Translations under genes and position numbers: made by a program
The notes under the pieces: generated by a model
Seen by the model: only the letters and a program-made list of their open reading frames with translations
The model's database searches: none
What the model was told of the DNA's origin: nothing
IMG/VR virus record: IMGVR_UViG_3300028888_000085
Location: 34,608-98,607 of that record
Strand: one strand, 5' to 3'
DNA: 64,000 bases
Source: a virus
Lineage: Duplodnaviria > Caudoviricetes
Part shown: piece by piece, positions 24,871-62,014 of the stretch
Layout: the number at the start of each line of letters is the position of its first letter
Numbering within the stretch: position 1 is the first letter of the stretch

Positions 24871-25102
24871 GTCTCAGAGGTATGGCATTTATTATGGGTG
24901 TAATACCTCTAAATCACCCGTAACGAATGCCATGCTAATGAGAACAGACTAAGTTCTTTATTGAACTACGCATCAACTTTAAGAAACGTTTGAATGCCTC
25001 CCCAGTTCATTCAATTCTGTTGATGCCTTGTCGAGGGGAAGTCGTATCGCCCTTACGGGAGGTACGCACTACACCAACTTTCATGTTGGTGGCTTATAGC
25101 GA
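24871..25102 (+). ncRNA. Orphan cassette A: single 36-nt repeat fused to anti-repeat and omegaRNA-like scaffold
   Basis: Repeat GTCTCAGAGGTATGGCATTTATTATGGGTGTAATAC (24871-24906); scaffold homologous to 48414-48608. Confidence 0.85.
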
Positions 25103-25256
25103 AAATTAGCAACATGATAACCTAAAAAGCCAGGCACTTTCTGAACAAATTTGGTGTGCGAACAGTTGTCGTTGAGGTTACAAAGGAAATCACGGTGAAG
25201 AAAACTATCTGTGTCCATAACAGGTATGAACCAAATAATGACGTTGATAATGGAGA

Positions 25257-25862
25257 GTGACAATGGAAATCACATGGCATGACGGTAAACAGACACCAAA
25301 CGACGAAACCGGCAGCTACATTATTCTGACGAATAAGGGCAACATCGCCGAGGCAGAATGGAGAAACAATCATTGGTATCAGTATCGTTGGAGTTCGCAG
25401 TATGAACCACATGAGGTAAAAGCATGGTGTCGTCTGGACGATGTAAAAGAGACGTATACTCCAGCTAATGTACGATACAGCAGGCAGACTGTGTTTTGTG
25501 TTAAATTTGAAAAAGACGGGTTGGACAATTCGGTTATTTACGATGTGTCTTCCGTACAAGGAACTGGTCAAACTTTCAAATCATACGGTCACACGTTCAG
25601 TTTTGTGAAGTTCAAAGCTATCTGTGAGCATGATTCTCAGTTGGAGAAGTGGTTTTATGATTACCACGACAAACCTAAGGACAACGTAGGAACGGCACGT
25701 TTATTTGCAATCAATGGAGAAACCGGCGAAACCGTTCGGACGTATAATTTACAGGACGTGTACCCCGCAAACTGTAAGAGGTTCGATTGTTGCGATGGTG
25801 AGTATTTATCAGTCGAGTTCAATGGTTTGTTTCCGCATGACATGGTAACTGAATCCGTATGA
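25257..25862 (+). CDS. Hypothetical protein; C-terminal half weakly tail-tube (gp19)-like
   Basis: LEKWF...GETVRTYNLQDVYP. Confidence 0.5.
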   Translation: MTMEITWHDGKQTPNDETGSYIILTNKGNIAEAEWRNNHWYQYRWSSQYEPHEVKAWCRLDDVKETYTPANVRYSRQTVFCVKFEKDGLDNSVIYDVSSVQGTGQTFKSYGHTFSFVKFKAICEHDSQLEKWFYDYHDKPKDNVGTARLFAINGETGETVRTYNLQDVYPANCKRFDCCDGEYLSVEFNGLFPHDMVTESV

Positions 25863-25870
25863 GCTTTGTC

Positions 25871-25911
25871 GTGGTGCTGTGCATCATCTGAGCAGTTAAA
25901 CGTGCTATACA
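25871..25911 (+). promoter_or_regulatory. Phage promoter motif GTGGTGCTGT-N22-TGCTATACA
   Basis: Same motif and spacing as the 24338 copy. Confidence 0.65.
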
Positions 25912-25953
25912 TGTGTTTGTCGTTAGGTCGTTTCGTCATAAGGAGACAAACAC

Positions 25954-26334
25954 ATGGCTACATTCACAAGCAAAAAAGAAATTGTCACGAAACTCAAAAC
26001 ACAAATTTCCGAGAAGGATGAAACTGCGATTCATGCACTGTTATTCGTTTATGCGTATCAGGAAGCATCGGAGCAGGACAATTCTGTTACGTCGTTTAAT
26101 AATGGCGTAGGATTTAATAAGCATGATGCAGAGTTCTGTACCAGTCTTGTGAACCAATATAACGAACGCGGTTCGTTTTCACGCAAGCAGCTTGAATGCA
26201 TCAAGCGTGTGATGCAGAAGTATGCCGGTCAAATCGTCGAAATAAAACTTGGAAATGGCGACATAGTGAAGAATGGTCGTGTTTACACATGGACTGCAAA
26301 TGGAGTAAACTATGAGACAGCTATCCCCGCTTGA
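25954..26334 (+). CDS. Hypothetical phage protein
   Basis: SD AAGGAG; NGVGFNKHDA motif. Confidence 0.7.
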   Translation: MATFTSKKEIVTKLKTQISEKDETAIHALLFVYAYQEASEQDNSVTSFNNGVGFNKHDAEFCTSLVNQYNERGSFSRKQLECIKRVMQKYAGQIVEIKLGNGDIVKNGRVYTWTANGVNYETAIPA

Positions 26335-26869
26335 ATACAGACGTTTTATCGTATGGACGTTTCCGACAGTCATCGACATGCTTTCCGTTCTTGATAACCG
26401 ATGGGTTGCTGTTGAACATGACACTTATTCTGAACGCATTACATCGAGAGTGGAGAAACGTAAAGGCAAGGACGTGACGTGTTATGGCGTAAAACCGTTA
26501 GACAAACGTGTATTTCTCGAAGCAATCGACAAGGACGGTTTTATTCCGTTCATCGGTCATCTCATTCAAACGTTATATGAGCTTACGCCAGAAAATACAG
26601 ATTCAACTGAACTGTATAGTGATGCACATGAAGCGATTTCGGCTCTTCCTGATGCACCTGATTTGCCAGAATCAAGCGACCCAGATGAAATTTCTCGATG
26701 CATAAGTGCTATGCGTTATGTCCTCGGCATGGGGTTTGGCAATCTTGAAAAGTTCAACAAGATTTGCGTTTACCTTGCAAAGGTTTCGATTGAGATGCTT
26801 TTTTGGTATCTTTACCCTTCACAGACGCTTTCTTATGGCAAAGTTGTCGATAACGATGAATCACACTGA
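26312..26869 (+). CDS. Hypothetical protein
   Basis: ORF with GGAG SD. Confidence 0.6.
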   Translation: MRQLSPLEYRRFIVWTFPTVIDMLSVLDNRWVAVEHDTYSERITSRVEKRKGKDVTCYGVKPLDKRVFLEAIDKDGFIPFIGHLIQTLYELTPENTDSTELYSDAHEAISALPDAPDLPESSDPDEISRCISAMRYVLGMGFGNLEKFNKICVYLAKVSIEMLFWYLYPSQTLSYGKVVDNDESH

Positions 26870-26886
26870 CAGATTAAAGGATAACA

Positions 26887-27375
26887 ATGATGCTTATTAA
26901 GAAACAAAGGGCATACAGAAGCAGACGACGTGCTTTTGAGATGGCACTGGACAAAGCAAAGTTTCAGGCTGTTGTGTCAGATCATTCCGAACAAGTGTTG
27001 CAGAGCTGGTGTCTGATGGAATATTGCCGTTGTTATCGTCACGATCTCGCAGACACCTATGAGCATTGGCGTACAGAGCTTGAGACACAGCTCAACACCA
27101 TTGCACGAAAACTCGTAAAGGGCGACAAGCTCAAATGGACGAAACAGGTGATGATTGACGAGGAAGAGTTTGATCGTGTAGAGAATGTGTTTAATGCTTG
27201 TCGCGTCAAATTCAGACATGAAAACAGAGATGGCTTAGGAATTACAGACAAGGAACAGCATACGGTTTGCATTCATTGTGCTGATGAAATATACGACATC
27301 ATAGAGTGCATGGCATCACAAGACATCACCATTTACACTGACAGGCGGTTTCCACCTATGGAAACACTTGCATAA
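26887..27375 (+). CDS. Hypothetical protein with basic leader (MLIKKQRAYRSRRRAFE)
   Basis: ORF with SD. Confidence 0.6.
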   Translation: MMLIKKQRAYRSRRRAFEMALDKAKFQAVVSDHSEQVLQSWCLMEYCRCYRHDLADTYEHWRTELETQLNTIARKLVKGDKLKWTKQVMIDEEEFDRVENVFNACRVKFRHENRDGLGITDKEQHTVCIHCADEIYDIIECMASQDITIYTDRRFPPMETLA

Positions 27376-27515
27376 CCAATCAACAAAACCGAAATTAGGA
27401 TTAAAGCAATGAGTATGCAGAAATTTAAGTCACAGTGTACACAGTTTATGACTTTGCGTACACTGTGGGAGTGTTCGTTGTGAAGACAATTATAGAGACA
27501 TGTGAGAGGTGAACC

Positions 27516-28142: not shown

Positions 28143-28162
28143 TTACAGGACAAGGAACCAAC

Positions 28163-29848: not shown

Positions 29849-29924
29849 TTATTGGTTTTTCTTGTATGCCTCCCGGTCATTCGATACGGGTCTTGTATGT
29901 GAGACACTTAAACCTCCATTAGAT

Positions 29925-30025
29925 GTCTCAGAGGTATAGCATTTCTATTGGTGTGATACTTAACAAGTATGACCTGACCAACTACCGCTGTCTCAGAGGT
30001 ATGGCATTTATTATGGGTGTAATAC
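29925..30025 (+). CRISPR. Mini array B: 2 repeats, one 30-nt spacer
   Basis: Repeats 29925-29959 (degenerate, 35 nt) and 29990-30025; spacer TTAACAAGTATGACCTGACCAACTACCGCT. Confidence 0.85.
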
Positions 30026-30224
30026 CTCTAAAACACCCGTAGTAAATGTCATACTGAAGGGAACAGACTAAGTTCTTTACTGAACTATGCATCAACTTTA
30101 AAAAGAAACGTTCTGATACCTCCCCAGTCAGTTCAATTCTGTTGATGCCTTGTCGAGAGGAAGCCGCACTGTCGTAAATGATACTGCGCATCACATCGGC
30201 TCTCATGCTGATGGCTTATAGCAA
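30026..30224 (+). ncRNA. Anti-repeat + omegaRNA-like scaffold B
   Basis: CACCCGTAGTAAATGTCATAC pairs with the repeat; homologous to the other four scaffolds. Confidence 0.85.
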
Positions 30225-31960: not shown

Positions 31961-31993
31961 GCAACACAACTTTGGAACATATAGGTAACTGAA

Positions 31994-33143: not shown

Positions 33144-33148
33144 GGTAT

Positions 33149-48608: not shown

Positions 48609-48829
48609 GTATTACACTCATAACAAATGTCATACCTCTGAGACAGTCGGTACGGGCAAGAGTATTACACCCGTTACAAATGTCATACCTCTGAGACCAC
48701 GTATCCGTTGAGTCAGACGGTTTCGTCGTATTACACTCATAACAAATGTCATACCTCTGAGACTAATCAGTGCCATATCACCACCTCACCTGGGTATAAC
48801 ACTCGTAACAAATGCCACGCCTATGAGAC
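48609..48829 (-). CRISPR. Array D: 4 repeats; spacers 17, 30, 30 nt
   Basis: Repeats at 48609, 48662, 48728, 48794; transcribed consensus GTCTCAGAGGTATGACATTTGTTATGAGTGTAATAC. Confidence 0.93.
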
Positions 48830-48890
48830 GAATGCATGTAGCATAACAACCTCCAATACATAAGAGCCGTCACTATTGACGACAAGAGAA

Positions 48891-48931
48891 ACCTTAACAC
48901 AGAACCTCACTGCATAAATTTACAGCACCAT
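48891..48931 (-). promoter_or_regulatory. Phage promoter motif for array D-scaffold-iscB
   Basis: ATGGTGCTGT-N22-TGTTAAGGT. Confidence 0.6.
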
Positions 48932-48973
48932 GATATCCAAATGTTACGTCACAAACACTTATATGGAGACGAC

Positions 48974-49819
48974 ATGAAAGAAAACGAAACCAGAACAGTG
49001 CTTTCACCTGTCATTAAATGGAGCGGAAGCAAACGACATATCGCAAAGGATATTATTGAGTATTTTCCAAAAACCGTAAACACGTACTATGAACCATTCA
49101 TCGGCGGCGGTTCGGTGCTTGGACGAATGCTTTACATACAAGACACTGTAGCACAGAGATACGTCGCAGGTGATACGTGCAGCCATCTTATCTGTCTTTG
49201 GAACATGGTACAGCACAAACCATGCGAACTCATACAGCATTACACACAAGAATGGGAGCGTCTGCAAACGTGTGGTCAGACCGTTTATTATGAAGTTCGG
49301 CAACGCTTCAACAATACCCATTTACCAGAAGACTTGTTGTTTTTGTCAAGAACATGTATGAACGGACTGATAAGATTCAATGAAAAGGGAGAGTTCAACA
49401 GCTCGTTTCATATCGGAAGACCTGGCATCCACCCAGACAAACTTTCACAGATAGTCGGCACATGGTCTTCGGCAGTTCAAGACGTATCATTCGTATGTGC
49501 AGACTATGAAGAGACAACAAAAGATGCAACAGGTGAAGACATTGTGTACCTAGACCCGCCGTACATGGGAACAAAGGGAATGTATGCAGGAAAATTCGAC
49601 CACGGTAGGTTCTTTTCTTATCTCGAAAAGCTAAACCATCGTGGTGTGCACTGGGTATTGTCATACGACGGGAAACGCGGCGAACGTGACATGACAGCAG
49701 ATGTACCAAAGCACCTGTATAAGAGGCATCTGTATTTGGAATCTGGCGGTTCGTCATTCAGTCGGATTAAGGAACAAGGTATCGTACCGGTGAAAGAATC
49801 TCTGTTCCTTAACTACTGA
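48974..49819 (+). CDS. Dam-like D12-class adenine methyltransferase
   Basis: IKWSGSK, YYEPFIGGGSV, YLDPPY. Confidence 0.9.
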   Translation: MKENETRTVLSPVIKWSGSKRHIAKDIIEYFPKTVNTYYEPFIGGGSVLGRMLYIQDTVAQRYVAGDTCSHLICLWNMVQHKPCELIQHYTQEWERLQTCGQTVYYEVRQRFNNTHLPEDLLFLSRTCMNGLIRFNEKGEFNSSFHIGRPGIHPDKLSQIVGTWSSAVQDVSFVCADYEETTKDATGEDIVYLDPPYMGTKGMYAGKFDHGRFFSYLEKLNHRGVHWVLSYDGKRGERDMTADVPKHLYKRHLYLESGGSSFSRIKEQGIVPVKESLFLNY

Positions 49820-49839
49820 TGCGGTTGGTGGTTGACTTT

Positions 49840-50679
49840 TCAAACTCTAACCAGATACTCGGTTTTGAAGCCATTATCCTTGTTCACACGATTGGTACGA
49901 TTAGCAACTTCTTTCGTAAAGATGACCTCAGAATCCTTTGGCACAGTACGCTCACTCACATACACATCAAATAGTTGTGACTTCGCCCACTTCCAAAACA
50001 TTTCATGGTCAAATCCTGAGTTTTGGTACTGTGTGCATCGTGTTTCATTATATGGAATGTCACAGTACACGACATCACCGTCACGATGTGAATACCGTTC
50101 ATAGGACAGATAGGATAGTGAAAGAGCGTCAGGGCTTTCAGGTAGCCGTAAACTTTCGAGACGTTGCATACGTTCCAAACGCTCAAGACGTGTAACAGAT
50201 GCCACATTCTTATGTGTTCTCCACCAATCGTATCTTTCTTTGATTGATAATAACTCAGGTAATTGTGTGTTATCGAAAGTCTGACATTCGTCAGTAATTA
50301 CACCGTCAACTATCCATGTTTCGATGGAATGTTTTACAGCCTCTACATTTTTACCGTAGATGTAATCCAAACCATTGTTCCCGAAACTCCAAACGTATCT
50401 TGTAGCCCAATCCTGTGATTTAAAGTCGTCACGTGATACCCACTTGTAGGACACAGGATTCCTACCACACAAGCATTGAGCATACAAATACAGAGGTTCC
50501 GGGTTTATGTCGTTAATCAGGAAGGATTCCCATTTGTTTTGGAATTTACGTATTGCACAGTCAGTAACAGCACAACCTCCAGCGAACAAATCAACCAGTC
50601 GCTTTCCTGGCGGCAGTGCATCGCATATCTGTTTTGCATAAATACTTTTCGACCCCTTGTATGGAATACCAAACGACAT
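49840..50679 (-). CDS. D12-class adenine methyltransferase-like protein
   Basis: PYKGSK, DLFAGG, YCDIPY. Confidence 0.8.
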   Translation of the reverse strand: MSFGIPYKGSKSIYAKQICDALPPGKRLVDLFAGGCAVTDCAIRKFQNKWESFLINDINPEPLYLYAQCLCGRNPVSYKWVSRDDFKSQDWATRYVWSFGNNGLDYIYGKNVEAVKHSIETWIVDGVITDECQTFDNTQLPELLSIKERYDWWRTHKNVASVTRLERLERMQRLESLRLPESPDALSLSYLSYERYSHRDGDVVYCDIPYNETRCTQYQNSGFDHEMFWKWAKSQLFDVYVSERTVPKDSEVIFTKEVANRTNRVNKDNGFKTEYLVRV

Positions 50680-50681
50680 AC

Positions 50682-51104
50682 TTACCTCTTATCACGAATA
50701 CCGACTACACGGTATAAGGTATCCGTCGGACATGAATCAATCTTTCTCAGTTTGAATAAAGATTTCCAGAAAGCCTGTGCAGTCTTGTTTCCACGCACTA
50801 TATGAAGAGTTTCAATCTCTCCGCCTTCTTCTATAAATTGCATCACAGCTTTTCTTGCAAAACCTTTACGTCTGTGTTCCGGCATCACATAGATGCCGTT
50901 GACATACTTGTCGATGACCATAAGAAATCCAACAGGCTTGCCATCACACATGATAAGTCTGTACCCGTTAGAGTCCACAGACCATTTACGCAGGTCAGGA
51001 AAGCAGAGGCGGTCAACGGTTTCTCTGAACGCAAGGTACATCTCTTGTTCCAGATTGTCGTCAAAAATGCTTTTTAGCAGTTCAAAGTGTTGTTCTGGAA
51101 TCAT
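50682..51104 (-). CDS. GNAT acetyltransferase
   Basis: IYVMPEHRRKGFA...NKTAQAFW. Confidence 0.75.
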   Translation of the reverse strand: MIPEQHFELLKSIFDDNLEQEMYLAFRETVDRLCFPDLRKWSVDSNGYRLIMCDGKPVGFLMVIDKYVNGIYVMPEHRRKGFARKAVMQFIEEGGEIETLHIVRGNKTAQAFWKSLFKLRKIDSCPTDTLYRVVGIRDKR

Positions 51105-51421
51105 ACGAAAACATCTTCCTCATAATAGGACCATCCTGTCCATCCCATCGTCGAAGGCGTGAATGAGTTTGACAGTTCTTCAGATGACATAAGAATTGGT
51201 ATTCCTTGTTCCGTATGCCTGAACACCCTTAACTGTACTGTCAGCTCCTGTCCACGGAACGTCTCGTCAGAAAGGGCGTTTAGGTAGGTTTTCTTTAAGG
51301 TGTTGACCACGGTTCTTACCTCTACTTCTGTTTCAAACGTGAGCCTTCCAGTCTCATACACGAAACCATCCTCATACGCCACGGTTTGGACTAACTCGTA
51401 ACCTTTACTTTTATCAGACAT
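51101..51421 (-). CDS. Hypothetical protein
   Basis: Tightly packed operon ORF. Confidence 0.6.
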   Translation of the reverse strand: MSDKSKGYELVQTVAYEDGFVYETGRLTFETEVEVRTVVNTLKKTYLNALSDETFRGQELTVQLRVFRHTEQGIPILMSSEELSNSFTPSTMGWTGWSYYEEDVFV

Positions 51422-51424
51422 ATT

Positions 51425-52096
51425 CTACTCCAATTCGACGGCATTGATAAGCAGCTCAGAAATTGAGGCTCCGATGTCAGACACTTCATCACGTCGAAGC
51501 TCTGCATCCTCAATGGATGTAAACACTTCGTAAATCACTTTGTTTGTGAAATGGTCTTTGTACATCAGACGGTAAAGCACCGAGTGCGGATAATCCGAAA
51601 CGAACAGAGGCGTTGGGGAATCGTGACGTTCTGCCAAATAAAACGAATCGACATGAAGCGTCATTTCGATATCTTTACGGTCAGGAAAAGTGAAGCTATC
51701 TTCAATGGAAACTTTTGTAGGGTGAACACCTTCAATATTCAAACGATATTTCAGTTTGTCAGATGGATAATACTTGCACAAGAACCCTTTTGTTTTTACC
51801 TGTATGCATAAACTAGGTTTGCATACCCCTTTGTATGCCAAATCGACCCAAGACTGTAATGTTTCTGCAACCTCGTTAGTAACCGTGGAACGAACAATTA
51901 TTTCGTTGTCAGTGTTTCCTCTTATCCGAACTTGGTCGATACCACAAAACGAATTACAGGTCTTGGTATTCAGATGTGCATAGGCACATCGGAACTTCAC
52001 ACCAAGTGTCTTGTCTGTACCTGGAATGCTGTCAATGACAACCTCAGTAAAATCATCTTCAGCTGTACACGAAAACTCTCTTCCGCAACCACTCAT
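51425..52096 (-). CDS. Hypothetical protein, weakly tail-tube-like
   Basis: LQSWVDL...IEGVHPTKV...IEMTLHVD; SD GGAGG. Confidence 0.55.
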   Translation of the reverse strand: MSGCGREFSCTAEDDFTEVVIDSIPGTDKTLGVKFRCAYAHLNTKTCNSFCGIDQVRIRGNTDNEIIVRSTVTNEVAETLQSWVDLAYKGVCKPSLCIQVKTKGFLCKYYPSDKLKYRLNIEGVHPTKVSIEDSFTFPDRKDIEMTLHVDSFYLAERHDSPTPLFVSDYPHSVLYRLMYKDHFTNKVIYEVFTSIEDAELRRDEVSDIGASISELLINAVELE

Positions 52097-52176
52097 TACA
52101 ACCCTCCATCAAACATCTCCAAAGAGATGCGTAAAATAATAGGAACAGAAACAGGAGCATCCACACGTGGGGGAAA

Positions 52177-52422
52177 CTAAATTTCCTTAAAAAGGTAAAA
52201 TGCTTCCAGTATATGTTCCTTCCATTCTCCCTTAATGCAAATCAGCATCCCCTTTTTCATATCTCGCATCACCAATTCGGCTTGCTTACCGGTCGCTACA
52301 CAGTGTGTAAATTGTGTGTGTTCGCCATTAACGTTTACAAGTTCTAATTTGGCTCTTTTGTTACAATCCATTATAGGGTCATTAGCAAGTCTGCCAATCG
52401 TGATTACCATCCTGTTGTCCAT
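52177..52422 (-). CDS. Minimal SSB-like OB-fold protein
   Basis: IGRLANDP...HCVATGKQAE...KKGMLICIKG. Confidence 0.65.
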   Translation of the reverse strand: MDNRMVITIGRLANDPIMDCNKRAKLELVNVNGEHTQFTHCVATGKQAELVMRDMKKGMLICIKGEWKEHILEAFYLFKEI

Positions 52423-52431
52423 TTGAATCTC

Positions 52432-52608
52432 CTACTTGTTGGAAATGTCAAGAATGACTGTATTCCCCTTTACTTTGACATCGTCTTCGTCAAAGTCTTC
52501 AAGGTCTTTCCAGCACGACCCATAAGCGTCGCCATTCAGAAACTGAATGAGAACCTGTGAATTAAGGTCGAACTCTAATAATAGTTTAATCAATTCCTTT
52601 ACTGTCAT
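52432..52608 (-). CDS. Small hypothetical protein (MTVKELI..., 58 aa, not in the ORF track)
   Basis: SD AAGGAG; N-terminus similar to the neighbouring MKVKELI gene. Confidence 0.6.
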   Translation of the reverse strand: MTVKELIKLLLEFDLNSQVLIQFLNGDAYGSCWKDLEDFDEDDVKVKGNTVILDISNK

Positions 52609-52856
52609 TGCTCTTTCTCCTTAAACCAATGTCGGTGGTAAAAGTCTATTTTATCCTCGTCCTCATCGTCCAGATAACCTGAAATAATAATATCTCCCGT
52701 AACCTCATCTACCATATAATACTTCTCGTCAAATTCCACTAACTTTGGGTTAAAACATTGCTCATCTTGTATGTACTCTTCATGCCAAGCCTCTATAAGA
52801 ACTTCTCGGTCTGGGTCAAGTGTTTTCAGTGAATCAATCAACTCTTTCACTTTCAT
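52605..52856 (-). CDS. Small hypothetical protein (MKVKELI...)
   Basis: SD GGAG. Confidence 0.6.
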   Translation of the reverse strand: MKVKELIDSLKTLDPDREVLIEAWHEEYIQDEQCFNPKLVEFDEKYYMVDEVTGDIIISGYLDDEDEDKIDFYHRHWFKEKEQ

Positions 52857-52882
52857 TGCCCTTTCTCCCTTGTATAACGTTA

Positions 52883-53284
52883 TTAAAGAAGTTCCCATCC
52901 GCCCAAATCTTCCGGCAGATGGATTACCATGTGAGCATAAAAATCTAACGGCATACTGCTTACATTGTTTCGTGCATGTTCAACAACACTCTCACCTTCG
53001 CAAATGCAGACAAAGTCCATGCCGTCTCCGTCCAATGGTTTGTTCATGTTGACGTAACCGTAAATCCATTCTCGAAGAACGTTTGCTTCATGGGACGCAT
53101 AAGATGGAGATACGTCCCACCCTTTGAAATTACGCCATTCGAGCACATACACGTCACGTCCTTCACATACAGAATGACGTATCATGTCCGGTTCACAATG
53201 CTGCATCCTGTCCTGAACAAACATCTTGAAGTCCTGATAAGCATGTTCCTGACACATCACATAAATATCATAAAGCACTGCCAT
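52883..53284 (-). CDS. Hypothetical protein
   Basis: SD GGAGG. Confidence 0.6.
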   Translation of the reverse strand: MAVLYDIYVMCQEHAYQDFKMFVQDRMQHCEPDMIRHSVCEGRDVYVLEWRNFKGWDVSPSYASHEANVLREWIYGYVNMNKPLDGDGMDFVCICEGESVVEHARNNVSSMPLDFYAHMVIHLPEDLGGWELL

Positions 53285-53303
53285 ACGCTTCCTCCATTAA
53301 ACT

Positions 53304-53738
53304 TCACTGTCCATTAGGAACAACAACGATTTCAAAGTACCATAGATCATACTTGTCGGATGACAGGATGTGTATCCCGTCCACATCAATGCTGTCTGCC
53401 ATGCCGAACGGAACGACGTGAATTGTGTCACATCTACGAAACGCTTCTTCGATCAGTCTGCCACACGGCGTGTCCAGAATAAGTAACTCTGCCATCAGTT
53501 GATGTTTGGATTCATCTATCCACAAGTTGACTATTTTCCCTGCTACATCTGGATAATACAGCTCACATCTCTCTTTATTGAGTTTGGATTGAGGCACACA
53601 AAGCATCATCTCACGAAATTTCTCGTCTTCATTGAACTGTTTGACGATACGTTCCATAAGACGTTTCGTGTACAGATTCCCTGATGGGAGCACTGTGTCA
53701 TACCATACGCTTTCAGATACAATACGATGTTCATTCAT
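53304..53738 (-). CDS. Prohead protease (T4 gp21)-like fold, apparently non-catalytic
   Basis: GNLYTKRLM...KIVNLWID...AELLILDTPCGRLI. Confidence 0.5.
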   Translation of the reverse strand: MNEHRIVSESVWYDTVLPSGNLYTKRLMERIVKQFNEDEKFREMMLCVPQSKLNKERCELYYPDVAGKIVNLWIDESKHQLMAELLILDTPCGRLIEEAFRRCDTIHVVPFGMADSIDVDGIHILSSDKYDLWYFEIVVVPNGQ

Positions 53739-54448
53739 AACGTGATTCCTTTAGGATTTTTCTTCTTAGGGATTAAGTCATCAAAGTGGATTTCTGAATG
53801 ACGAAGTTTCGAGGCATCAGGAAAATCGAAGCAATAAGGGACGACACCTGAACCGCAAAATACCTTTATGTCTAAACAGTCTTTAAAGGGATACCACGTC
53901 AATCCGAGTAATGCCATGAAACATCCTCTGAAAAAGTATCCGTCAGAGGAAAAGTCTGTGTTGTTCATGTCGTCCGATAAATCCACAATCATGCGATAAG
54001 GCGTAATATCTCCAACATTGATACGTTCCGTAAACTCTTGAACCAGGAAGTTCATTTCACGCTCCCACTGTTCTGCACCTCCAAAGTGAAGAAGAGCAAT
54101 GTCACATGACCACGACTTCATAAAGTCTTTTGTGTCGTTGTGAAGATACCGGTCAATAAGACACTTGAAAAAACTTTTCCACACAACACGGGAAGGAATT
54201 AAGAATCGTGAGTCTCTTGAACACTGTGCATTAAATGATGCTTGTATGAAGTCTGCCCTTGTTTTGTATGATGGAGACATGTTCGGGCCGTAAATCAGAT
54301 GCGTGTCACATGCTGCCTGCATAACCTCAGACACACACCTGTCTCTAAGCTCTTTCTGTGATGGGTGAAACCATGCGAGACGTGAAATACATACACTCTC
54401 CGTGCAGAGTTTCCTAATTCTGTTGTCAATCCATTCCGATTGTTTCAT
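53735..54448 (-). CDS. Hypothetical protein
   Basis: SD GGAG; first gene after the promoter motif at 54523. Confidence 0.6.
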   Translation of the reverse strand: MKQSEWIDNRIRKLCTESVCISRLAWFHPSQKELRDRCVSEVMQAACDTHLIYGPNMSPSYKTRADFIQASFNAQCSRDSRFLIPSRVVWKSFFKCLIDRYLHNDTKDFMKSWSCDIALLHFGGAEQWEREMNFLVQEFTERINVGDITPYRMIVDLSDDMNNTDFSSDGYFFRGCFMALLGLTWYPFKDCLDIKVFCGSGVVPYCFDFPDASKLRHSEIHFDDLIPKKKNPKGITL

Positions 54449-54610
54449 AGCTGTGCTCCAGATTCATGGTTAAAATCACGACCTGTTGAGAAGTATATAA
54501 CTTCTTGGTCGGAGAAAAATCTGTAGCACCACGACAATGCGCAAGTCTTTAAAAACAAAGAGCGCACAGGTATTGTCCTGTACGCTCTTTCGAGAAATCT
54601 GACGAAAGCC

Positions 54611-55717
54611 TTAAAGTTCGGACTTCAAGACCTCCATAACCTGGCTGAGATGGTTCGACACCTCTGAATAAGTTTCGCATCGACGACTTCCTATGGGCTT
54701 TACCAACTCACATGATGCAGTCATTCCGTGGACTTTAATAGCAAGGTCAGCATCTTCATGGTCGATGTGTGCAAGAATGAGAGTCCCTCCGTCATCCAGG
54801 CGTTCACTTGAAATCGTATCAAACATGTCACCATAGCTGGCATGAAGTTCGTCTTTCAAGACATCAACCAGAGGTTTCTGGAGTTCATCGCCTTTTGACC
54901 AAACCTCTTTTTTCACCGAAGCTCTTCTTGAACGAGATTTGACATTGCAGCATTCCACTTTCTTATCCAGAATGTTCAGTGCCCAGTTGACGATTTTTGA
55001 ACACAAACTGCGCATGTCGTCTTCCCAATCACCTGTCCATGTGATGCGGAACTCGTCATCGCTGATGGGTTCGTATTCGTCATCAATAATCTCTTCGAGT
55101 TCAACATTGTAAACAGCTGTGGCACGTCCAGACAAACCAGACTCACGAACATCAAGAGAGAATACACGGTTGTTCTTTGCACCATTTTCAGTTTCAAGCG
55201 TATAAGTCCATCGAGTGAGGTCAGAATCCAACTGGTATTCTACATCGTAAGACCCGATTATCTCCTGGCATGAATCATCGATGATGTCTTCAAGCGAAAT
55301 TTCAACGGCATCGTCTTCAATAGACATCTCTTCAAATCGACGGTTCCTTGACTCGCCAATTTTTATCTGGGCATGTCCGTCTTTGAGCATCTTGTTTGTT
55401 GCATAAGCAACGAGGTCGAGTGCCTTAATAAGGGATGCTTTGCTGACTGGTTTCCCGGCTTCAACAGCTTTCTGAGCCTTGTCGTCTCTCTGTAACGCTT
55501 TGCATAAAAATTTGTAACCGGACTTGTTACCACAATAGAATCCGTAACCGTAAGCACGTGTGAAGCTGAGTCCCATGTCCTGCAGCATGGTCACTAGGTC
55601 TTGTTGGTCCCAGCCGCTTTCCGTGAGTTCGACGACCTTTCCTTTCACCTTTACGAACACACTAGCGGGTAAGTCATTATCAGCTTCTCTTTTAATGGGT
55701 TTTTGGTTTATTAACAT
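54611..55717 (-). CDS. Multi-domain protein with basic linkers (putative head-internal protein)
   Basis: SD GAGGTG; MLINQKPIKREA, GESRNRRFEE. Confidence 0.65.
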   Translation of the reverse strand: MLINQKPIKREADNDLPASVFVKVKGKVVELTESGWDQQDLVTMLQDMGLSFTRAYGYGFYCGNKSGYKFLCKALQRDDKAQKAVEAGKPVSKASLIKALDLVAYATNKMLKDGHAQIKIGESRNRRFEEMSIEDDAVEISLEDIIDDSCQEIIGSYDVEYQLDSDLTRWTYTLETENGAKNNRVFSLDVRESGLSGRATAVYNVELEEIIDDEYEPISDDEFRITWTGDWEDDMRSLCSKIVNWALNILDKKVECCNVKSRSRRASVKKEVWSKGDELQKPLVDVLKDELHASYGDMFDTISSERLDDGGTLILAHIDHEDADLAIKVHGMTASCELVKPIGSRRCETYSEVSNHLSQVMEVLKSEL

Positions 55718-55746
55718 TTCGCACCTCTCTTCTACTTGAAACAAGA

Positions 55747-56028
55747 CTATTTGTCATAGTCGTAAGCGTAACACGGGCAGAACCCAGATGGATTGATAAC
55801 TTCTGAACGTGGATTTGAAACGAAAGCTATCCGGGTGACCAACTCCATGGAAGTTCCATCATTCCGTTCCAGAGTGACAAATACTCCATTACGCTTCTTT
55901 ACTATGTACTGAACGGACAGCCCAAGTTCCTCTGTAATCTGGTCGTATGGCGTAATATTGATTATTTGACCCTCAACAAAAACCGATGTACGGTCTTCAT
56001 CTGTTTTATTCTTTCGTTTGTACGACAT
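55747..56028 (-). CDS. Hypothetical protein
   Basis: SD GGAG. Confidence 0.55.
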   Translation of the reverse strand: MSYKRKNKTDEDRTSVFVEGQIINITPYDQITEELGLSVQYIVKKRNGVFVTLERNDGTSMELVTRIAFVSNPRSEVINPSGFCPCYAYDYDK

Positions 56029-56108
56029 CGGAACTCCAAAAAGAAAGAGAGGAATCGCTGTTGCTGTTCCTCTCTTAGATAGAACTCAGAGTCCTTAAAG
56101 CAAACCGT

Positions 56109-56480
56109 TTAGAGTATGTGAAGTTGACGCAAGATGCGTTTCGCTTCAGTAACGTCGAAGTCGCTGGAATACTCGCCAGTTTCATTATCTATGGCGCACA
56201 TGAGAATGTTGCCGAACAAAGGCTGCTGAAAGATACGCATACGATAAGGAAGAATCGAAAATGCGTTGATGTTTCCGTCTTCCATATTCTCGCCGACAAT
56301 CATACCCTCATCATCACAGATGAAATCATAGCTGATGTTTGGATTCTTTTTGGACTCGCCGACAGAGAACATCGTAATCAGGCGACAGCCGATTTTGTTA
56401 TAAATGCTCTCCAACGAGTCATCAATCGTGATTGTTTCAATCTTGCCGGTTTTCGGAATAAAAATCATCTTGCGTCTCAT
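56109..56480 (-). CDS. DUF3846-like protein
   Basis: LESIYNKIGC...ICDDEG...LFGNIL. Confidence 0.5.
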   Translation of the reverse strand: MRRKMIFIPKTGKIETITIDDSLESIYNKIGCRLITMFSVGESKKNPNISYDFICDDEGMIVGENMEDGNINAFSILPYRMRIFQQPLFGNILMCAIDNETGEYSSDFDVTEAKRILRQLHIL

Positions 56481-56682
56481 GCGTTTCTCCTGTGAACTGC
56501 TCTTTTAAGAACTTTCTGAACATGTCCAGAGTACGAGACCCATTTACTCCGTACTCGGGACATCATTCATACTAGCACTAAAAAGAAAACTTGCTTTTAC
56601 AGCACCACGAAAGCAACGAAACCTTATTAACTTGCACGGCGGAGTGTCGCTATTCAGAAAAGCCGTATAAAATCTATGGATG

Positions 56683-57336
56683 CTAACTTGCGAACACACG
56701 CAAAATTCCTTGTGCTATACCACGTGCAAGGGCTTTCTTGTACTCATCTGTCGAAAGCAATTCGACTTCATTAGCATGAGACATAAAGCCGCATTCAACC
56801 ACCAAAGACGGCATAGTCGTATGCTTGAGTGTGTAGTATGTGCTGTTTGCTTTCGCACCACGGTTCTTTATTGGATGCTTCGTACCGTCTTTGTCTGTTA
56901 CAGTAAAATTCTTTACCTGTTCCATGATACTGCTATGTACAACAGAAGCGAATGTCTTTGATTTCGAGCTCGTGGAAAAATACCAGGTTTCAATTCCGTT
57001 AGCAGTTTCACCTTTATACGAGTTGCAATGAATGGAAACGAAGCATGAAGCCTTGTTCAGATTGGCAATGTTACAGCGTGACTGCAAGGTAACCGTATCA
57101 TCTGAAGCTCTTGTCATAATGACGGAAACAGGCGGTTTGGGGTCTTCAGGACAAAAGTCGTTCATCACGAAATCGCCGCTTAAAGAATCTCGTGTCGCAT
57201 AAAGCAGATAAGAAGCGACATAGAGTGATATGTCCAGCACGATGTCTTTTTCTTTATGCTTTTGATCATGCGACACCGCACCAGGCTGTTGTCCCCCATG
57301 TCCAGGGTCTATGCAAACATTTGGTAATTTAGCCAT
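56683..57336 (-). CDS. N-acetylmuramoyl-L-alanine amidase (Amidase_3; endolysin candidate)
   Basis: IDPGHGG, KEK, FVSIHCN, LVVECGFM. Confidence 0.9.
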   Translation of the reverse strand: MAKLPNVCIDPGHGGQQPGAVSHDQKHKEKDIVLDISLYVASYLLYATRDSLSGDFVMNDFCPEDPKPPVSVIMTRASDDTVTLQSRCNIANLNKASCFVSIHCNSYKGETANGIETWYFSTSSKSKTFASVVHSSIMEQVKNFTVTDKDGTKHPIKNRGAKANSTYYTLKHTTMPSLVVECGFMSHANEVELLSTDEYKKALARGIAQGILRVFAS

Positions 57337-57441
57337 TATCTGTTGCCCTTCCTTGCCCCAAAGGTTCTGTTTTTTTTGATACACAGCGGTCACAAATCCA
57401 TCCGCTTTATCGTGTGGCTTGTGACTGATACTGCCAATCTC

Positions 57442-60249
57442 TCAAAGTGTTTTTATCATCTTCTGTGCATAGAAGTAACCAATCAAATCACCTACACGAC
57501 GACCGTTTCCAAGCTGCCGTGCATATCTAGCTCTTTTGTTTTCTTTTTCGTCTTCTGTTTTTCCACGTGTATTAGCATATTCAACACAGTATGCGTTATA
57601 CTGTGCTTTTGGAGCAACCGCTGTTCCGTCACGCTTACAGCATGTGTCTGCTTTGGCGGGTGTCGAATTGGAGATGCGTGCAATGCAGAAGATGTCGTTT
57701 AAGGTTGCATTCTTTAGTTTGTTACGCTGTTCCATCCAGAAATGGTCAACCCAATATCTGAAAAGAATCCGCTGATACGGATACGAACCATCACTGTTTT
57801 GTGCATACAGAATTTCATGTGCCCAATCCTGCCACGGTTTGGACGGAAAAGGACTGGACGCAGAAAACCTTGAGGCGAGACCGGAACGTTTTGACGCATT
57901 TGTTCCCATACCGTCAAAGTTACAGATGCACTTTCCACCGTTATCCAGATATGGAATTTTTCGTCCGCTTCCGTCACTCATATCCTGCCATACTGCACTG
58001 TTTGCATTCGTGTAGAATATAAGATTCAGCATTTCTCTTGTAGCGTACTTCGCAGGGAATCCGATTAGACGATAAAGGTTATACAACGCACCAGAATCGA
58101 AATGGGCGATACCGAGTCCGCCAACTTTGTAATCAAACAGTCCTTTTCCGTGTGCTTCATCCGGTGCATCCCATCCTTTACGTTTTCGACCGTCTTTGCA
58201 TAAGGTCATACAGTCAGTTACTCCACTTGGGACGTTTGAGAATCCCCAGTTACCTGCACCACCAAGCAAACCGAGAAGTGCCATGTTGCATTCTTCGAGA
58301 ATGTGTTTCTTGAACCAGTCTGACGACACATCCAAAACTCTTTTTGTTCCTACAGAAGAAATAAGTTCATCGACGGCTTTGTCGAATTTACCATTCTTCA
58401 TGTTTTCGGGAGTTCTGTCTACGGAGACCGGAACTGGATTTGCGTAACCAGAACACAGATACGAACAGAAATTTGCACTTGAAGCCATACTGCCTCCATC
58501 GTTATCGGGTTCGCCTCTATCTTCAGACGAAACGTAATCATCATCAATCGTTCCTTCACTGCCACTGCTTCCAGTTCCAGAAGAGTTTAGCAACGACTTG
58601 ATGATTCCAGTTTGTGTTTGTAATGCACTGGAATCATGGACCCCAGCCATTGTGGAACCGCCGCCCCTGACTGCATTCATAGCGTTTTGTTCCAATGCGG
58701 TTGGCATATTGGCCAACTGTACTGAGGTTGAAACCACCCCACCGGACCATTGAAATGTAACGCTTTCAACACGATAAAAACCTTGTACGACACCAGCAAG
58801 CCCGTTACTCGTATAGCTGTAAATCTCAGCATACTGTGAGAGTCCGTCACCCCAATGGATGAAATTCCTGCAAGAGATTTGAACTTTTGCACCCTCGGTA
58901 TTGTTCCTTAGTGCAATCATTGCAAGTCTCATATAGGTGCTTGTTGCATTGTCGTTTGCCATAAAACGACCGCTGGGTGTAAACACCATTGTGCCGTTCG
59001 GCGTATCCTGAACGTCGAAATTCACATTCATCAGGAAGCTACTGTCAACTGTCGAAGACACTGAGTCCAAAGGTATGGCAACTTTGTTATTCCATAATCC
59101 GTATGGTTTAGGAGCATTATAAAGAAACACGACACGGTCTAACGACAAGTCGGTTCCTTCCATATCAGCCGGGGTTAATGATTCATCGTCCTTTCTTACA
59201 GCAACAAGGTACGACCCTGAATTGTTCACATCCTTACGTGGTATATAAATCTCTCGCTCAGATTCTGGGAGACTTGTTATGTCTGAGACAGACTCTAACC
59301 CTTCTTTTGCAGCGAACAGATTGTCGATGATGTTGCTAAATTCTCTCTCATACATGGATGATGCAGAAGAGGCGTTTGCCGAACTGTTCAGTACGGCAAA
59401 CTCGTACATACCGTTTCGGAAATAAAATTTCTTCTTTTCTTTTTTTAATTCCGAAATCCATTCTTCTAATGTGAAGAACTTGTCAGTACCTTTCAAACAG
59501 GAAGCAAATCGAACATCCACTTTGTAAAGTGTCTTGAAGGCTTTAAAAACCTCTTCTGGTTCTGAATAACGCTCACCGACGACGCCACGGCACATATTTG
59601 GTGATGACTGGTCAGGCATGGACGCTAAAGAAGATTCGTTAGAAGTCCCGCCCGTACTCCCCTCTGTTGCTTGAAGTGAATTGATGGCATCCTGTATGGC
59701 TTGCTTGTGTTTATCGTAAGCCATGTTTGAACCTTCAACAGAGCTTCCGAAGTCAAGCATGTGAAAGTCCTGCAACGACTGGTACGTGTTACCCATATTT
59801 CCTGACGAGTTCATGTCCAGTTGAAATGTTATCGTGGATGGTGTCCCCATGTTGTAGGACCACCCTTTCACATTCAGAAACCACACACGTGTTCCACTGT
59901 AACACTTTATCCCGATTGCCATAGTACCGAAATTTCCTTCGGCAGCTATACCATACTGTGTGTTGCCTGTTGATACGGCAGTACGATTAGCGTTATTTAC
60001 TAGACTTTCAAGATTTGAGTCTTTCTTCGATGATGCAACAACGGACAACAGGGTAAACAAGTCTTCGTAGTAATCGACTACCGTAATCGTACCCTCTACG
60101 GAAGCCATACCTGACTCAGAACTTGTTGAGACGTTCTGCACGAGGTTCACACTCTGTACGGCTTTCATACGTGTAAAGTCGAACTGGTACGAACCGATGC
60201 CTAACACAGCTTTGACGAATGTGCTGTTCTTGTAGTTCTCAAGGCTCAT
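57442..60249 (-). CDS. Putative baseplate hub/tail protein with C-terminal extra domain
   Basis: GFYRVESVTFQW...STSVQL resembles a hub-domain end; followed by an S/G linker and a ~340-aa domain. Confidence 0.45.
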   Translation of the reverse strand: MSLENYKNSTFVKAVLGIGSYQFDFTRMKAVQSVNLVQNVSTSSESGMASVEGTITVVDYYEDLFTLLSVVASSKKDSNLESLVNNANRTAVSTGNTQYGIAAEGNFGTMAIGIKCYSGTRVWFLNVKGWSYNMGTPSTITFQLDMNSSGNMGNTYQSLQDFHMLDFGSSVEGSNMAYDKHKQAIQDAINSLQATEGSTGGTSNESSLASMPDQSSPNMCRGVVGERYSEPEEVFKAFKTLYKVDVRFASCLKGTDKFFTLEEWISELKKEKKKFYFRNGMYEFAVLNSSANASSASSMYEREFSNIIDNLFAAKEGLESVSDITSLPESEREIYIPRKDVNNSGSYLVAVRKDDESLTPADMEGTDLSLDRVVFLYNAPKPYGLWNNKVAIPLDSVSSTVDSSFLMNVNFDVQDTPNGTMVFTPSGRFMANDNATSTYMRLAMIALRNNTEGAKVQISCRNFIHWGDGLSQYAEIYSYTSNGLAGVVQGFYRVESVTFQWSGGVVSTSVQLANMPTALEQNAMNAVRGGGSTMAGVHDSSALQTQTGIIKSLLNSSGTGSSGSEGTIDDDYVSSEDRGEPDNDGGSMASSANFCSYLCSGYANPVPVSVDRTPENMKNGKFDKAVDELISSVGTKRVLDVSSDWFKKHILEECNMALLGLLGGAGNWGFSNVPSGVTDCMTLCKDGRKRKGWDAPDEAHGKGLFDYKVGGLGIAHFDSGALYNLYRLIGFPAKYATREMLNLIFYTNANSAVWQDMSDGSGRKIPYLDNGGKCICNFDGMGTNASKRSGLASRFSASSPFPSKPWQDWAHEILYAQNSDGSYPYQRILFRYWVDHFWMEQRNKLKNATLNDIFCIARISNSTPAKADTCCKRDGTAVAPKAQYNAYCVEYANTRGKTEDEKENKRARYARQLGNGRRVGDLIGYFYAQKMIKTL

Positions 60250-60270
60250 TGATGCTTACCCACGATATGT

Positions 60271-61014
60271 CTATTTGAGGTCTATGATTGCTTTACATAG
60301 TGATTCTGGTTTCGTTGTACTGTCCGCACGTAAAACACGAATGTGATGTCGTCCAAGGTACGCTTTTCGTTCATGTTCCTTTTCTTCATCGTACCATCTA
60401 TGACCGGGTTCATCGTATTCGACAGCACATACGAATCGGTTATTCTCGTCAAAAACAGCGAAGTCTATTCTGTATGTACCGACGGAAAACTGACGTTCTA
60501 TCCTGTACCCCCATTGTGAAAGCATGGAATAAATGCGGTCATAAAAATGTGTCTCAGGACGTGAGGGACAGATTATTTCACGTTCAATTCCCAAAGAACT
60601 GCACAGCGCCTTTTTCACCCTGTCAGAGGTCATCGTATTGTGCGACAGGATAAAGATTATTCCGTCTATGGTTGTGAAGCATGAACGCTTTTTGAACTCT
60701 AAAAATTCGTCAGGCACAAGGCAGTTCAGTTCGCATACGAAATCTTCAAAGGTCGGCTCAAAGTCGTCGAAGTCAATACGGTCAAGAAGGTACGGTCGAA
60801 AAGCATCATCCATCGTGAGAAGAAATTCAGGAGCTTGCGACAGAAGCATTTTCAGCCCCTGAACTCTTCTGTACCCGAGAATACTTGCAAGATTGGACAA
60901 TGGGTACATTACGGTTTCAGCGATACGTAATTCCCATAAGCACAGTTCAAACCCTCTCAGATTACGTCTGTGTGCTTCCAAAGCTCCTGTACTATCCCGG
61001 TAAATGTACTGCAT
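60271..61014 (-). CDS. BRO-like N-terminus plus DUF559/Vsr-like endonuclease domain
   Basis: RQFSVGTYRIDF...VEYDEPGH. Confidence 0.65.
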   Translation of the reverse strand: MQYIYRDSTGALEAHRRNLRGFELCLWELRIAETVMYPLSNLASILGYRRVQGLKMLLSQAPEFLLTMDDAFRPYLLDRIDFDDFEPTFEDFVCELNCLVPDEFLEFKKRSCFTTIDGIIFILSHNTMTSDRVKKALCSSLGIEREIICPSRPETHFYDRIYSMLSQWGYRIERQFSVGTYRIDFAVFDENNRFVCAVEYDEPGHRWYDEEKEHERKAYLGRHHIRVLRADSTTKPESLCKAIIDLK

Positions 61015-61017
61015 GGT

Positions 61018-61260
61018 TTACTTCACACTCTGCTTCTTATAGTTTGACATTGCTCTTCGGACAACAGACGCAATACCAGAACGTGCGTCTTCAAAGGATT
61101 CATTGGACACTGTACGAGATGAAGTGTCTCCAAATGGTGTTCTTACATCATTCGTAGAGTAACCTTCGACTGCAAGGTAATGGGCCAGTGATCCGTGATC
61201 AACCATCTCAACCTGTACTGGTGTGTGTTTTTTCTTGTTAGTTTCTTTCTTGATAAGCAT
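61018..61260 (-). CDS. Small hypothetical protein (MLIKKE leader)
   Basis: SD AGGAG. Confidence 0.6.
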   Translation of the reverse strand: MLIKKETNKKKHTPVQVEMVDHGSLAHYLAVEGYSTNDVRTPFGDTSSRTVSNESFEDARSGIASVVRRAMSNYKKQSVK

Positions 61261-61345
61261 AACGTCTTCTCCTGTTTATGATTTGGCCGAACATAAAGTT
61301 GTCGGCATAGAAACTTTTTACCTTTGGTTTGATTGCAAGTGACAA

Positions 61346-61375
61346 TAAAAAAGCCGCTTCTCATGGAAGCGGCTT
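61346..61375 (-). terminator. Intrinsic terminator of cassette E
   Basis: AAGCCGCTTC-TCATG-GAAGCGGCTT with a T-tract on the minus strand. Confidence 0.8.
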
Positions 61376-61396
61376 GATGAAAATCTTGGTTATTTA

Positions 61397-61592
61397 TTGC
61401 TGTAAGCCATCAGCATGAAAGCCGATGTAATGCGTACCGCCCGTAAGGGCGATACGGCTTCCCCTCGACAAGGCATCAACAGAATTGAATGAACTGGGGC
61501 GGTATTCAAACGTTTCATTAAAGTTGATGCATAGCTCAAAAGAGCTGCGTCTGTTCTCATTAGTGTGACATTTGTTACGGGTGTTTTTAGAG
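61397..61592 (-). ncRNA. Anti-repeat + omegaRNA-like scaffold E
   Basis: Homologous to scaffolds A and D. Confidence 0.87.
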
Positions 61593-62014
61593 GCACCACA
61601 CCCATAACAAATGCCATACCTCTGAGACACCTATGGCTGTATGAAGACCTGTCTGTATGTATCACACCCATAACAAATGTCATACCTCTGAGACAATCTC
61701 TCTGGGCTCTGTATACGACGCCCCGTATCACACCTGTAAGAAATGTCACACCTCTGAGACCAGTTGATAGCGCACCCAACCCTCAGGCGTGTATCACACC
61801 TATAAAAATGTCATACCTATGAGACCTGAGAAATGATTGTCTGTGATTCCGGACAGTATCACACCTGTGTTAAATGCTATACCTCTGAGACAGCGCAAAC
61901 ATAGCGGTCACGAGATGCTCAGTGTTACACCTATGTTAAATGTCATCCATCTGAGACCTCCTCATTAAAAAGTGGGCGAAATTGCCAAGTCAATAAATGC
62001 CATACCTCTGATAC
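61593..62014 (-). CRISPR. Array E: 6 repeats plus 1 partial; five 30-nt spacers
   Basis: Repeats at 61593, 61659, 61725, 61791, 61856, 61922; partial repeat 61992-62014. Confidence 0.93.

Follow-up and report, generated by a model that had tools for sequence, protein, structure and literature searches.

CRISPR-associated IscB nucleases, such as DelIscB (457 aa), are described as having upstream of their open reading frame (ORF) an RNA in which spacers, repeats, and an anti-repeat are carried on an omegaRNA-like scaffold (Altae-Tran 2021, via PMC12660989). Where PMC12660989 deals with this array RNA, it leaves open whether and how the RNA is processed. Standalone omegaRNAs acting in trans with IscB are likewise already published, as related in PMC9581776 (citing Altae-Tran 2021). 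Each of these precedents concerns a single locus, in DNA that is either cellular or metagenomic and unplaced, whereas here we describe six guide loci in one viral genome, each with one or more repeats and an omegaRNA-type scaffold, and, as far as the contig shows, one iscB gene. The window that we analyzed, 64,000 nucleotides in length, comprises bases 34608-98607 of the 98.6-kb IMG/VR viral contig IMGVR_UViG_3300028888_000085, for which CheckV gives a completeness of 38%. Since its close relatives, which by their record names come from rumen metagenomes, assemble to ~243 kb, we regard the contig as belonging to an uncultured jumbo phage.

By means of a repeat search, alignment, a fuzzy scan for the 36-nt repeat, and a BLAST search with the cassette D scaffold over the whole contig, we located six array-plus-scaffold cassettes, with A, B, C, E, and F being orphans and D lying directly upstream of iscB. 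These features are given below in window coordinates (for F, contig coordinates), with bit scores from R1, a covariance model of the scaffold core.

24841-25115, plus strand: cassette A (orphan), with a flank-derived guide (24841-24870), a single 36-nt repeat (24871-24906), loop and anti-repeat, and scaffold core (24941-25099); R1 171 bits
29894-30240, plus strand: cassette B (orphan), with a decayed partial repeat, repeat (29925-29959), spacer (29960-29989), repeat (29990-30025), anti-repeat, and core (30060-30221); R1 174 bits
39432-39964, minus strand: cassette C (orphan), with four good repeats (39649-39881), two degenerate promoter-side repeats (39884-39964), and core (39459-39614); R1 162 bits
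46567-48390, minus strand: iscB, 607 aa, Pfam RRXRR and HNH; the sole IscB- or Cas9-like gene on the contig
48391-48931, minus strand: cassette D (iscB-linked), with a promoter box (48931-48922), four repeats (48609-48829), three spacers, anti-repeat, core (48417-48574), and ribosome-binding site; R1 180 bits
61351-62082, minus strand: cassette E (orphan, self-contained), with a promoter box, six repeats (61593-61957), a 23-nt partial repeat (61979-62014), core (61400-61557), and terminator; R1 186 bits
Contig 21768-22191, minus strand: cassette F (orphan, outside the window), with four repeats and a terminator-like hairpin

All six cassettes share one layout, in which the last repeat is followed by a short loop, an anti-repeat, and a scaffold of ~160 nt. 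The scaffold copies are 80-88% identical, and with E values of 1e-41 to 1e-67 in the BLAST search their similarity is far beyond chance. There are three spacers of 29-30 nt in C, spacers of 30, 30, and 17 nt in D, and five of 30 nt each in E, while the repeats at the promoter end are decayed in every multi-repeat array, B, C, D, and E among them. Cassette B lies downstream of a SNF2-type helicase gene, and the tail of C retains an iscB-type 5' untranslated region and ribosome-binding site with no ORF behind. None of the ORFs adjoining the orphan cassettes has a nuclease-like match in Pfam or PHROGs, and we rejected the downstream ORFs as separate effectors for want of any Pfam or PHROG match. 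The initial annotation had described A, B, C, and E with their positions, repeat numbers, and lack of a nuclease gene, and all of this was borne out by repeat search, alignment, and fuzzy scan; its statement that the spacers are all different holds within this genome. Extending the search for cassettes over the contig brought to light the sixth, F.

The identification of the 607-aa protein as an IscB by its sequence is decisive. Residues 2-122 match Pfam RRXRR (E 8e-44) and residues 263-310 Pfam HNH (E 2e-13), a phmmer comparison with OgeuIscB (7utn) gives an E value of 2e-42, and the PLMP motif at residues 11-14 is aligned with that of OgeuIscB. Moreover, the RuvC-I, RuvC-II, HNH, and RuvC-III motifs all align with 7utn, and the catalytic RuvC and HNH sites are intact. 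This iscB is the single tblastn match on the 98.6-kb contig, where Cas1 was not found and the Y1 transposase TnpA (Y1_Tnp) has no match. In a database of 5.8 billion proteins, no close IscB relative turned up besides that of L113, an 11-kb contig from a related phage whose IscB is 97% identical, and a tblastn-based search of IMG/VR returned no IscB relative. The other relatives are ordinary IscBs of ~420 aa with 41-49% identity, and compared with these the 607-aa protein has insertions near residues 120-180, 345-365, and 435-500.

Set against the described systems, cassette D together with iscB has the layout of a CRISPR-associated IscB, with four repeats, three spacers, a last repeat that pairs with the adjacent anti-repeat, and no adaptation genes in either case; its scaffold ends at the iscB ribosome-binding site, and the omegaRNA is thus directly 5' of the ORF. 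DelIscB, which we compared by its description, differs in that here the setting is a large phage, the protein has 607 aa, five nuclease-free copies of array and scaffold lie elsewhere, and the genomes of related phages reveal both natural targets and a candidate 3' motif. As for the orphans, each of A, B, C, E, and F has an intact scaffold (R1 162-186 bits) without an adjacent nuclease, which is the layout of standalone omegaRNAs and of the protein-less IS200/IS605 derivatives thought to borrow a nuclease encoded elsewhere. Cassette A is of just this type, but four of the five orphans carry multi-spacer arrays, their bearer is a virus, and there is no TnpA, so that the Y1 transposase that would mark an IS200/IS605 element has no counterpart on the contig. 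With type II CRISPR-Cas9, the cassettes share the 36-nt repeat, 30-nt spacers, repeat:anti-repeat duplex, guide 5' of the scaffold, 3' motif, and a nuclease with HNH within RuvC. However, the system falls outside that type, having a PLMP and RRXRR nuclease (IscB), an anti-repeat fused to the last repeat of the array, a large omegaRNA scaffold, and no cas1, cas2, or csn2. Literature searches yielded no account of an IscB in jumbo phages, nor of orphan scaffolds that bear arrays and are dispersed over a genome. What seems particular here is thus the number of scaffold-bearing guide loci per nuclease, combined with readable targets, a shared motif, and polymorphism between siblings.

That the orphan scaffolds are more than residues is suggested by their RNA structure. 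For this, we aligned nine scaffold copies, namely, the six of this phage, D of a relative, B of a 243-kb sibling (ENA ERZ27246314, contig k141_462726; ~85% nucleotide identity to this phage, ~55 kb examined), and a truncated copy from phage IMGVR_UViG_3300028888_000061 (hereafter G001; 138 kb seen). The RNAalifold consensus of the nine contains 71 pairs, on which 95.8% of the cells can pair, and 19 of the pairs are changed on both sides. No shuffled alignment in 500 reached the observed pairing and covariation values, and pairing falls to 32-45% when the partners are slid by 1-3 columns. Since the compensatory changes are mostly between orphan copies, the orphans are under structural selection. 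Moreover, the single-stranded motifs that contact the protein are invariant across the scaffolds, and certain helix variants are common to A, E, and F, with others common to B, C, and D.

R1 scores all of the copies at 156-186 bits and has no other match in the window. A further match (43 bits, E 9e-9) is to the 224 nt immediately preceding the gene of a canonical 420-aa IscB in an unrelated metagenome, and that RNA in turn matches Rfam HEARO (RF02033) at 64.5 bits (E 8e-13). Through these two matches the scaffold is recognizable as a probable divergent relative of the IscB omegaRNA, one that lies below Rfam's own threshold and whose 5' stem would have grown into a repeat:anti-repeat duplex. 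Direct comparison of cassette A with HEARO is weak (19.9 bits, E 0.044, with a cut-off of 83), nothing in the window attains an Rfam gathering score, and cassette D has no Rfam match at E<=1. Taken together, the kept base pairs and the omegaRNA homology argue that the orphans are maintained RNAs and not wrecks. A pattern of the repeat and an exact one of 30 scaffold bases matched no further IMG/VR record, and an 18-base degenerate pattern gave chance matches only across IMG/VR. As the scaffold and repeat patterns also had no match in 185,579 bacterial and archaeal species genomes, none of these has a host array built on this repeat or could be the bacterial source of the element. The GenBank phages contain no relative of the helicase and just chance matches to array E (E about 5).

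Beyond the arrays themselves, the phage's own contig has no match to any spacer. In related phage DNA, five guides found matches, these being the guide of A, C3, D1, D2, and the sibling's B spacer. For D2, the match is to the 3' end of a gene for 385 aa in G001-type phages (for example, L134:11136-11165). It extends over 28 of 30 positions in four contigs, spanning the last three codons and the stop, and in two of the four there is no mismatch among the 18 bases that adjoin the 3' flank. The remaining four guides match at 25-27 of 30 positions. C3, an orphan guide, lies inside this same 385-aa gene (25-26/30), with its five mismatches to G001 all being synonymous and the peptide HSFLSSLSK retained. 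The sibling's B spacer corresponds to the other strand of the D2 site, with an offset of one base. In fact, this one protospacer site, which has a purine-rich motif on both sides, is represented among the guides of three phages in three different cassettes, namely, D here (48698-48727), C of L113 (L113:10861-10890), and B of the sibling (L116:6593-6622). D1 matches the start of a 334-aa ORF of the sibling (25/30), while the guide of A has its match at the beginning of the neighboring ORF, of 188 aa (27/30; L116:11738-11767), in a region that is replaced in the present phage. From these matches, the targets appear to be accessory genes of related rumen phages. In a control, shuffled spacers gave 0.037 matches per spacer at <=8 mismatches, and 24 spacers compared with 1.05 Mb of unrelated viral contigs gave no match at <=6 mismatches.

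The 3' flanks of the five protospacers, read on the spacer-sense strand, are AAAAG, CAAAA, TGAAA, GAAAA, and GGAAA, all of which fit N-R-A-A-R, a pattern with a background frequency of 2.8%. Because we defined the motif after seeing the flanks, the nominal probability of ~2e-8 is too small; the agreement is nonetheless striking. For IscB and Cas9, the motif would be expected on just this side, 3' of the protospacer. That the motif is common to guides from A, B, C, and D is the strongest indication at hand of a single kind of effector using them all. Within the arrays, each spacer is followed instead by GTCTC, the start of the repeat, which does not fit the motif, and the phage's own DNA would thereby be spared.

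The comparison of relatives shows that cassettes are present in one phage and absent from another. In L113, D has five repeats (four here) and C has four (six here), and its spacers all differ from ours save for one in the C array that is identical to D2, which argues for fast spacer turnover and movement of spacers between cassettes. In the sibling, B occupies the corresponding site but holds another spacer, the C site is marked by a 15-nt repeat scar, and exactly 61399-62062 is lacking, corresponding to cassette E from its -10 element to the scaffold end. Where our phage has cassette A, an intact ORF of 188 aa stands in the sibling, and this ORF is the one that the cassette replaces. Next to its ligase gene, the island composed of radical-SAM gene, iscB, D, and methylase genes is missing. 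The boundaries of the cassettes between siblings are sharp, and with A, D with iscB, and E absent, C scarred, and B kept, the cassettes seem to be gained and lost as units. The initial annotation had read a 1-2-4-6-7 series of repeat numbers as snapshots of growing arrays, and this finds no support, as the relatives show turnover in both directions, the promoter-end repeats are decayed, and whole cassettes are present or absent.

Several neighboring features belong to this picture. A radical-SAM gene (45010-46209, minus strand) lies directly downstream of iscB and is kept with it in L113, and two D12-class adenine methylase genes (48941-50679) lie on the other side of cassette D; with all of these missing from the sibling along with iscB and D, the block behaves as one accessory island. 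A 6.4-kb block (50965-57336) is inverted relative to the ligase gene in the sibling (versus L128 and L143). We considered that a sibling iscB might be hidden beyond this inverted block, but a further 20 kb showed no iscB, radical-SAM gene, methylases, or cassette E.

In cassette A, the ~20 nt before the single repeat are the start of the replaced ORF, and in the sibling this sequence is followed by GGAAA. Having a guide that matches the cassette-free allele beside the motif is the arrangement expected for homing or localized marker exclusion, and for A the fit is suggestive of homing, not proof of it. The free-standing homing endonucleases of T-even phages cut the differing allele of a co-infecting relative, and repair then copies in the attacker's version, resulting in localized marker exclusion (PMC13565253). 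Like these, cassette A and D1 are directed at one locus for which the sibling has an alternative allele; unlike them, recognition here would be by an RNA guide, making it reprogrammable and multiplexed, and allele conversion is a candidate outcome. Inteins provide a further sign of such exchange. The SF1 helicase (40754-43021, 755 aa) and the ATP-dependent ligase (43620-45032, 470 aa) are intein-free here, while the same genes in relatives (L113, L125, and L128) have LAGLIDADG intein/homing-endonuclease insertions, the helicase then being 1113 aa and the ligase 791 aa, which points to active homing traffic among these phages.

The truncated scaffold of G001 (L115:1491-1865; contig 40886-41260) is 87% identical and keeps all the helices, with no repeat and no guide. 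It sits in a strain-specific 375-bp insertion after a LysC-like gene, and there is no iscB on the 138 kb of G001. Six related contigs lack it at the same locus, so that we discarded the idea of a decoy conserved in the clade in favor of a strain-specific feature. Conceivable origins are a relic or a scar left by recombination; a role as an RNA decoy is conceivable too, though speculative. After this scaffold follows an element of ~100 nt (L115:1745-1850), similar to a conserved one of that length found in our window at 3000-3101 and 15223-15325, upstream of two large ORFs and with copies 76-90% identical; it may be a leader or a small RNA.

With regard to transcription, we noticed an intergenic box, RTGGTGCTGT, with a TG-extended -10-like element ~20 nt later. 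Allowing <=1 mismatch, there are 21 intergenic matches versus 8.2 expected, and the box is probably that of a phage promoter class. Its exact copies are as follows.

7924, 24338, 25871, 33428, 48931, 56608, and 62082 (span 7915-62082): exact RTGGTGCTGT boxes

These include boxes before D (48931), before E (62082), and before the small ORF preceding A (24338), while B, C, and F directly follow upstream ORFs. For E, the box (62082-62073) and an extended -10 near 62040, together making up a promoter-like region at 62082-62035, and the terminator hairpin at 61375-61351 agree with the initial annotation of this cassette as bounded by a promoter motif and a terminator.

Our preferred reading, to which we assign a probability of roughly 0.6, is that the cassettes feed one type of IscB in trans. 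The initial annotation had at least five loci feeding one IscB; the single iscB on the contig agrees with this, the loci number six and not five, and the idea of a trans pool stands in part, with four lines of indirect support, namely, the orphan covariation together with omegaRNA homology, the shared 3' motif, the D2 spacer in two cassettes, and one iscB without cas1 or tnpA. As we picture it, the cassettes would derive from the IscB omegaRNA, its 5' guide-adaptor stem having become a 36-nt repeat paired with an anti-repeat, and in five of the six the repeat would then have multiplied into a short CRISPR-like array. Transcription would start from a cassette's own phage promoter (D and E) or read through from the upstream gene (A, B, C, and F). 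The last spacer, last repeat, and scaffold would fold into a natural single-guide RNA, and the upstream spacer-repeat units would presumably be excised and pair with the anti-repeat of a free scaffold RNA. All of the cassette RNAs would load the same kind of nuclease, the 607-aa IscB beside D, and the complex would cut DNA having a matching protospacer followed 3' by N-R-A-A-R. In this way, accessory genes of related large rumen phages may be cut and rivals excluded or damaged in co-infection, with the phage's own arrays spared by the GTCTC that follows each spacer. The cassettes themselves would be gained, lost, and exchanged as units by recombination, and cassette A, whose guide is its own flank, may cut the cassette-free allele and be copied in by repair.

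Several observations weigh against this reading. The count of one iscB covers the 98.6-kb contig, or ~38% of the genome, and further iscB genes may exist in the rest. The sibling keeps B, but apart from that of L113 there is no close IscB relative in the database of 5.8 billion proteins, which fits a relic as well as it does use in trans. There is only one anti-repeat per cassette to serve the maturation of the internal spacers, and the contig yielded no adaptation genes. Moreover, no protospacer is perfect at 30/30, ~13 of 18 spacers have no match in the related phage DNA compared, and against the only cassette-free allele seen the guide of A is mismatched two bases from the motif end.

Another RNA-guided nuclease family is at hand in these phages. 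The window includes a TnpB-like ORF of 559 aa (19248-20927, plus strand) with Cas12f1-like TNB, HTH_OrfB_IS605, and OrfB_IS605 matches and an N-terminal extension of ~195 aa, and the sibling has a TnpB of 440 aa at another locus (L125:11492-12814), from which we conclude that these phages carry a second family of RNA-guided nuclease.

Among the alternatives, it is conceivable, though unlikely, that the cassettes do work but that several IscB-type nucleases, from the unseen ~60% of the genome, a co-infecting phage, or a host element, each serve their own subset. The 38% completeness of the contig, the division of the scaffolds into A/E/F and B/C/D subtypes, the 559-aa TnpB-like nuclease, and a sibling that keeps B with no iscB in the ~55 kb examined would all suit such a division of labor. 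Yet the 3' motif is common to guides from A, B, C, and D, the scaffolds remain 80-88% identical with invariant protein-contacting motifs, and neither a second IscB on the 98.6 kb nor a close paralogue in the protein database was found. As to TnpB, its guide RNA is encoded at the 3' end of tnpB and is unrelated to the omegaRNA here.

Less probable again is that the orphans are what is left of IscB elements that were duplicated and then deprived of their nuclease gene, dead and now without function. In favor are the tail of C, with its iscB-type 5' untranslated region and ribosome-binding site but no ORF, the decayed promoter-side repeats of B, C, D, and E, the 15-nt scar at the sibling's C site, and the truncated guide-less scaffold in G001. 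Against this, compensatory changes preserve every helix in the orphans, whose arrays have unique, regular 30-nt spacers, and the protospacers of C3 and of the guide of A are followed by the 3' motif that also marks those of the D guides. Cassette E, moreover, has a probable promoter and a terminator of its own, and B persists, its site unchanged and its spacer different, in a sibling that is 85% identical.

Of similarly low probability, in our estimation, is that the cassettes are selfish mobile units parasitic on a nuclease, like the protein-less IS200/IS605 derivatives, which spread by homing and harm rivals as a by-product. The sharply bounded presence or absence of A, C, D, and E when siblings are compared, the guide of A that is its own flank and matches the empty allele with motif, and the intein homing endonucleases in the helicase and ligase of relatives, with none here, are what one would expect of such units. 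However, most guides are in arrays and aimed at genes of the more distant G001-type phages, not at the cassettes' own empty sites, there is no TnpA on the contig, and A replaces an ORF instead of being cleanly inserted. Finally, that the cassette RNAs are decoys or regulators, which sequester a host or rival Cas9 or IscB in the manner of RNA anti-CRISPRs or guide non-cutting repression of the phage's own genes, is very improbable, since for all that G001, of the targeted clade, carries a scaffold with neither repeat nor guide and that the repeat start, as read from its sequence, resembles those of type II repeats, no spacer matches the contig outside the arrays, the protospacers are foreign and have the motif, the catalytic motifs of IscB are intact, and the repeat is absent from the 185,579 bacterial and archaeal species genomes.

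Returning to the reading of one IscB type fed in trans, its nearest parallel in viruses lies with the virus-borne mini-CRISPR arrays and the huge-phage CRISPR systems targeting rival viruses, reportedly described by Medvedeva in 2019, Faure in 2019, and Al-Shayeb in 2020. As with the mini-arrays, the arrays are short, lie in a viral genome that has no adaptation module, and carry spacers directed at related viruses, and their presumed role is in virus-virus conflict. Unlike here, those arrays need Cas effectors of host or phage and have no built-in scaffold, whereas each array in our phage has an omegaRNA scaffold and its effector would be IscB. A bolder extension, which we consider unlikely as a whole, is a modular warfare and homing network of rumen jumbo phages, wherein nuclease-free cassettes would be mobile, passing from one co-infecting phage to another as IscB cuts cassette-free alleles, spacers would be swapped between loci, one iscB island would arm all of the cassettes, and targeted phages would counter with guide-less scaffolds, as in G001, serving as RNA decoys against the IscB of the attacker.

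For the biology of these phages, the six guide loci provide a setting in which to ask how a fused omegaRNA becomes a multi-guide system of crRNA (CRISPR RNA) together with tracrRNA (trans-activating crRNA), how arrays turn over their spacers without cas1-cas2, and whether RNA-guided nucleases drive allele exclusion or homing between phages, as the protein homing endonucleases of T-even phages do. They also offer a compact nuclease, a short purine-rich candidate motif, and six natural variants of a guide scaffold, whose covariation maps the positions that tolerate change. Were the warfare and homing network true, the passage of a one-guide omegaRNA into a crRNA array plus tracrRNA would be visible in living genomes.

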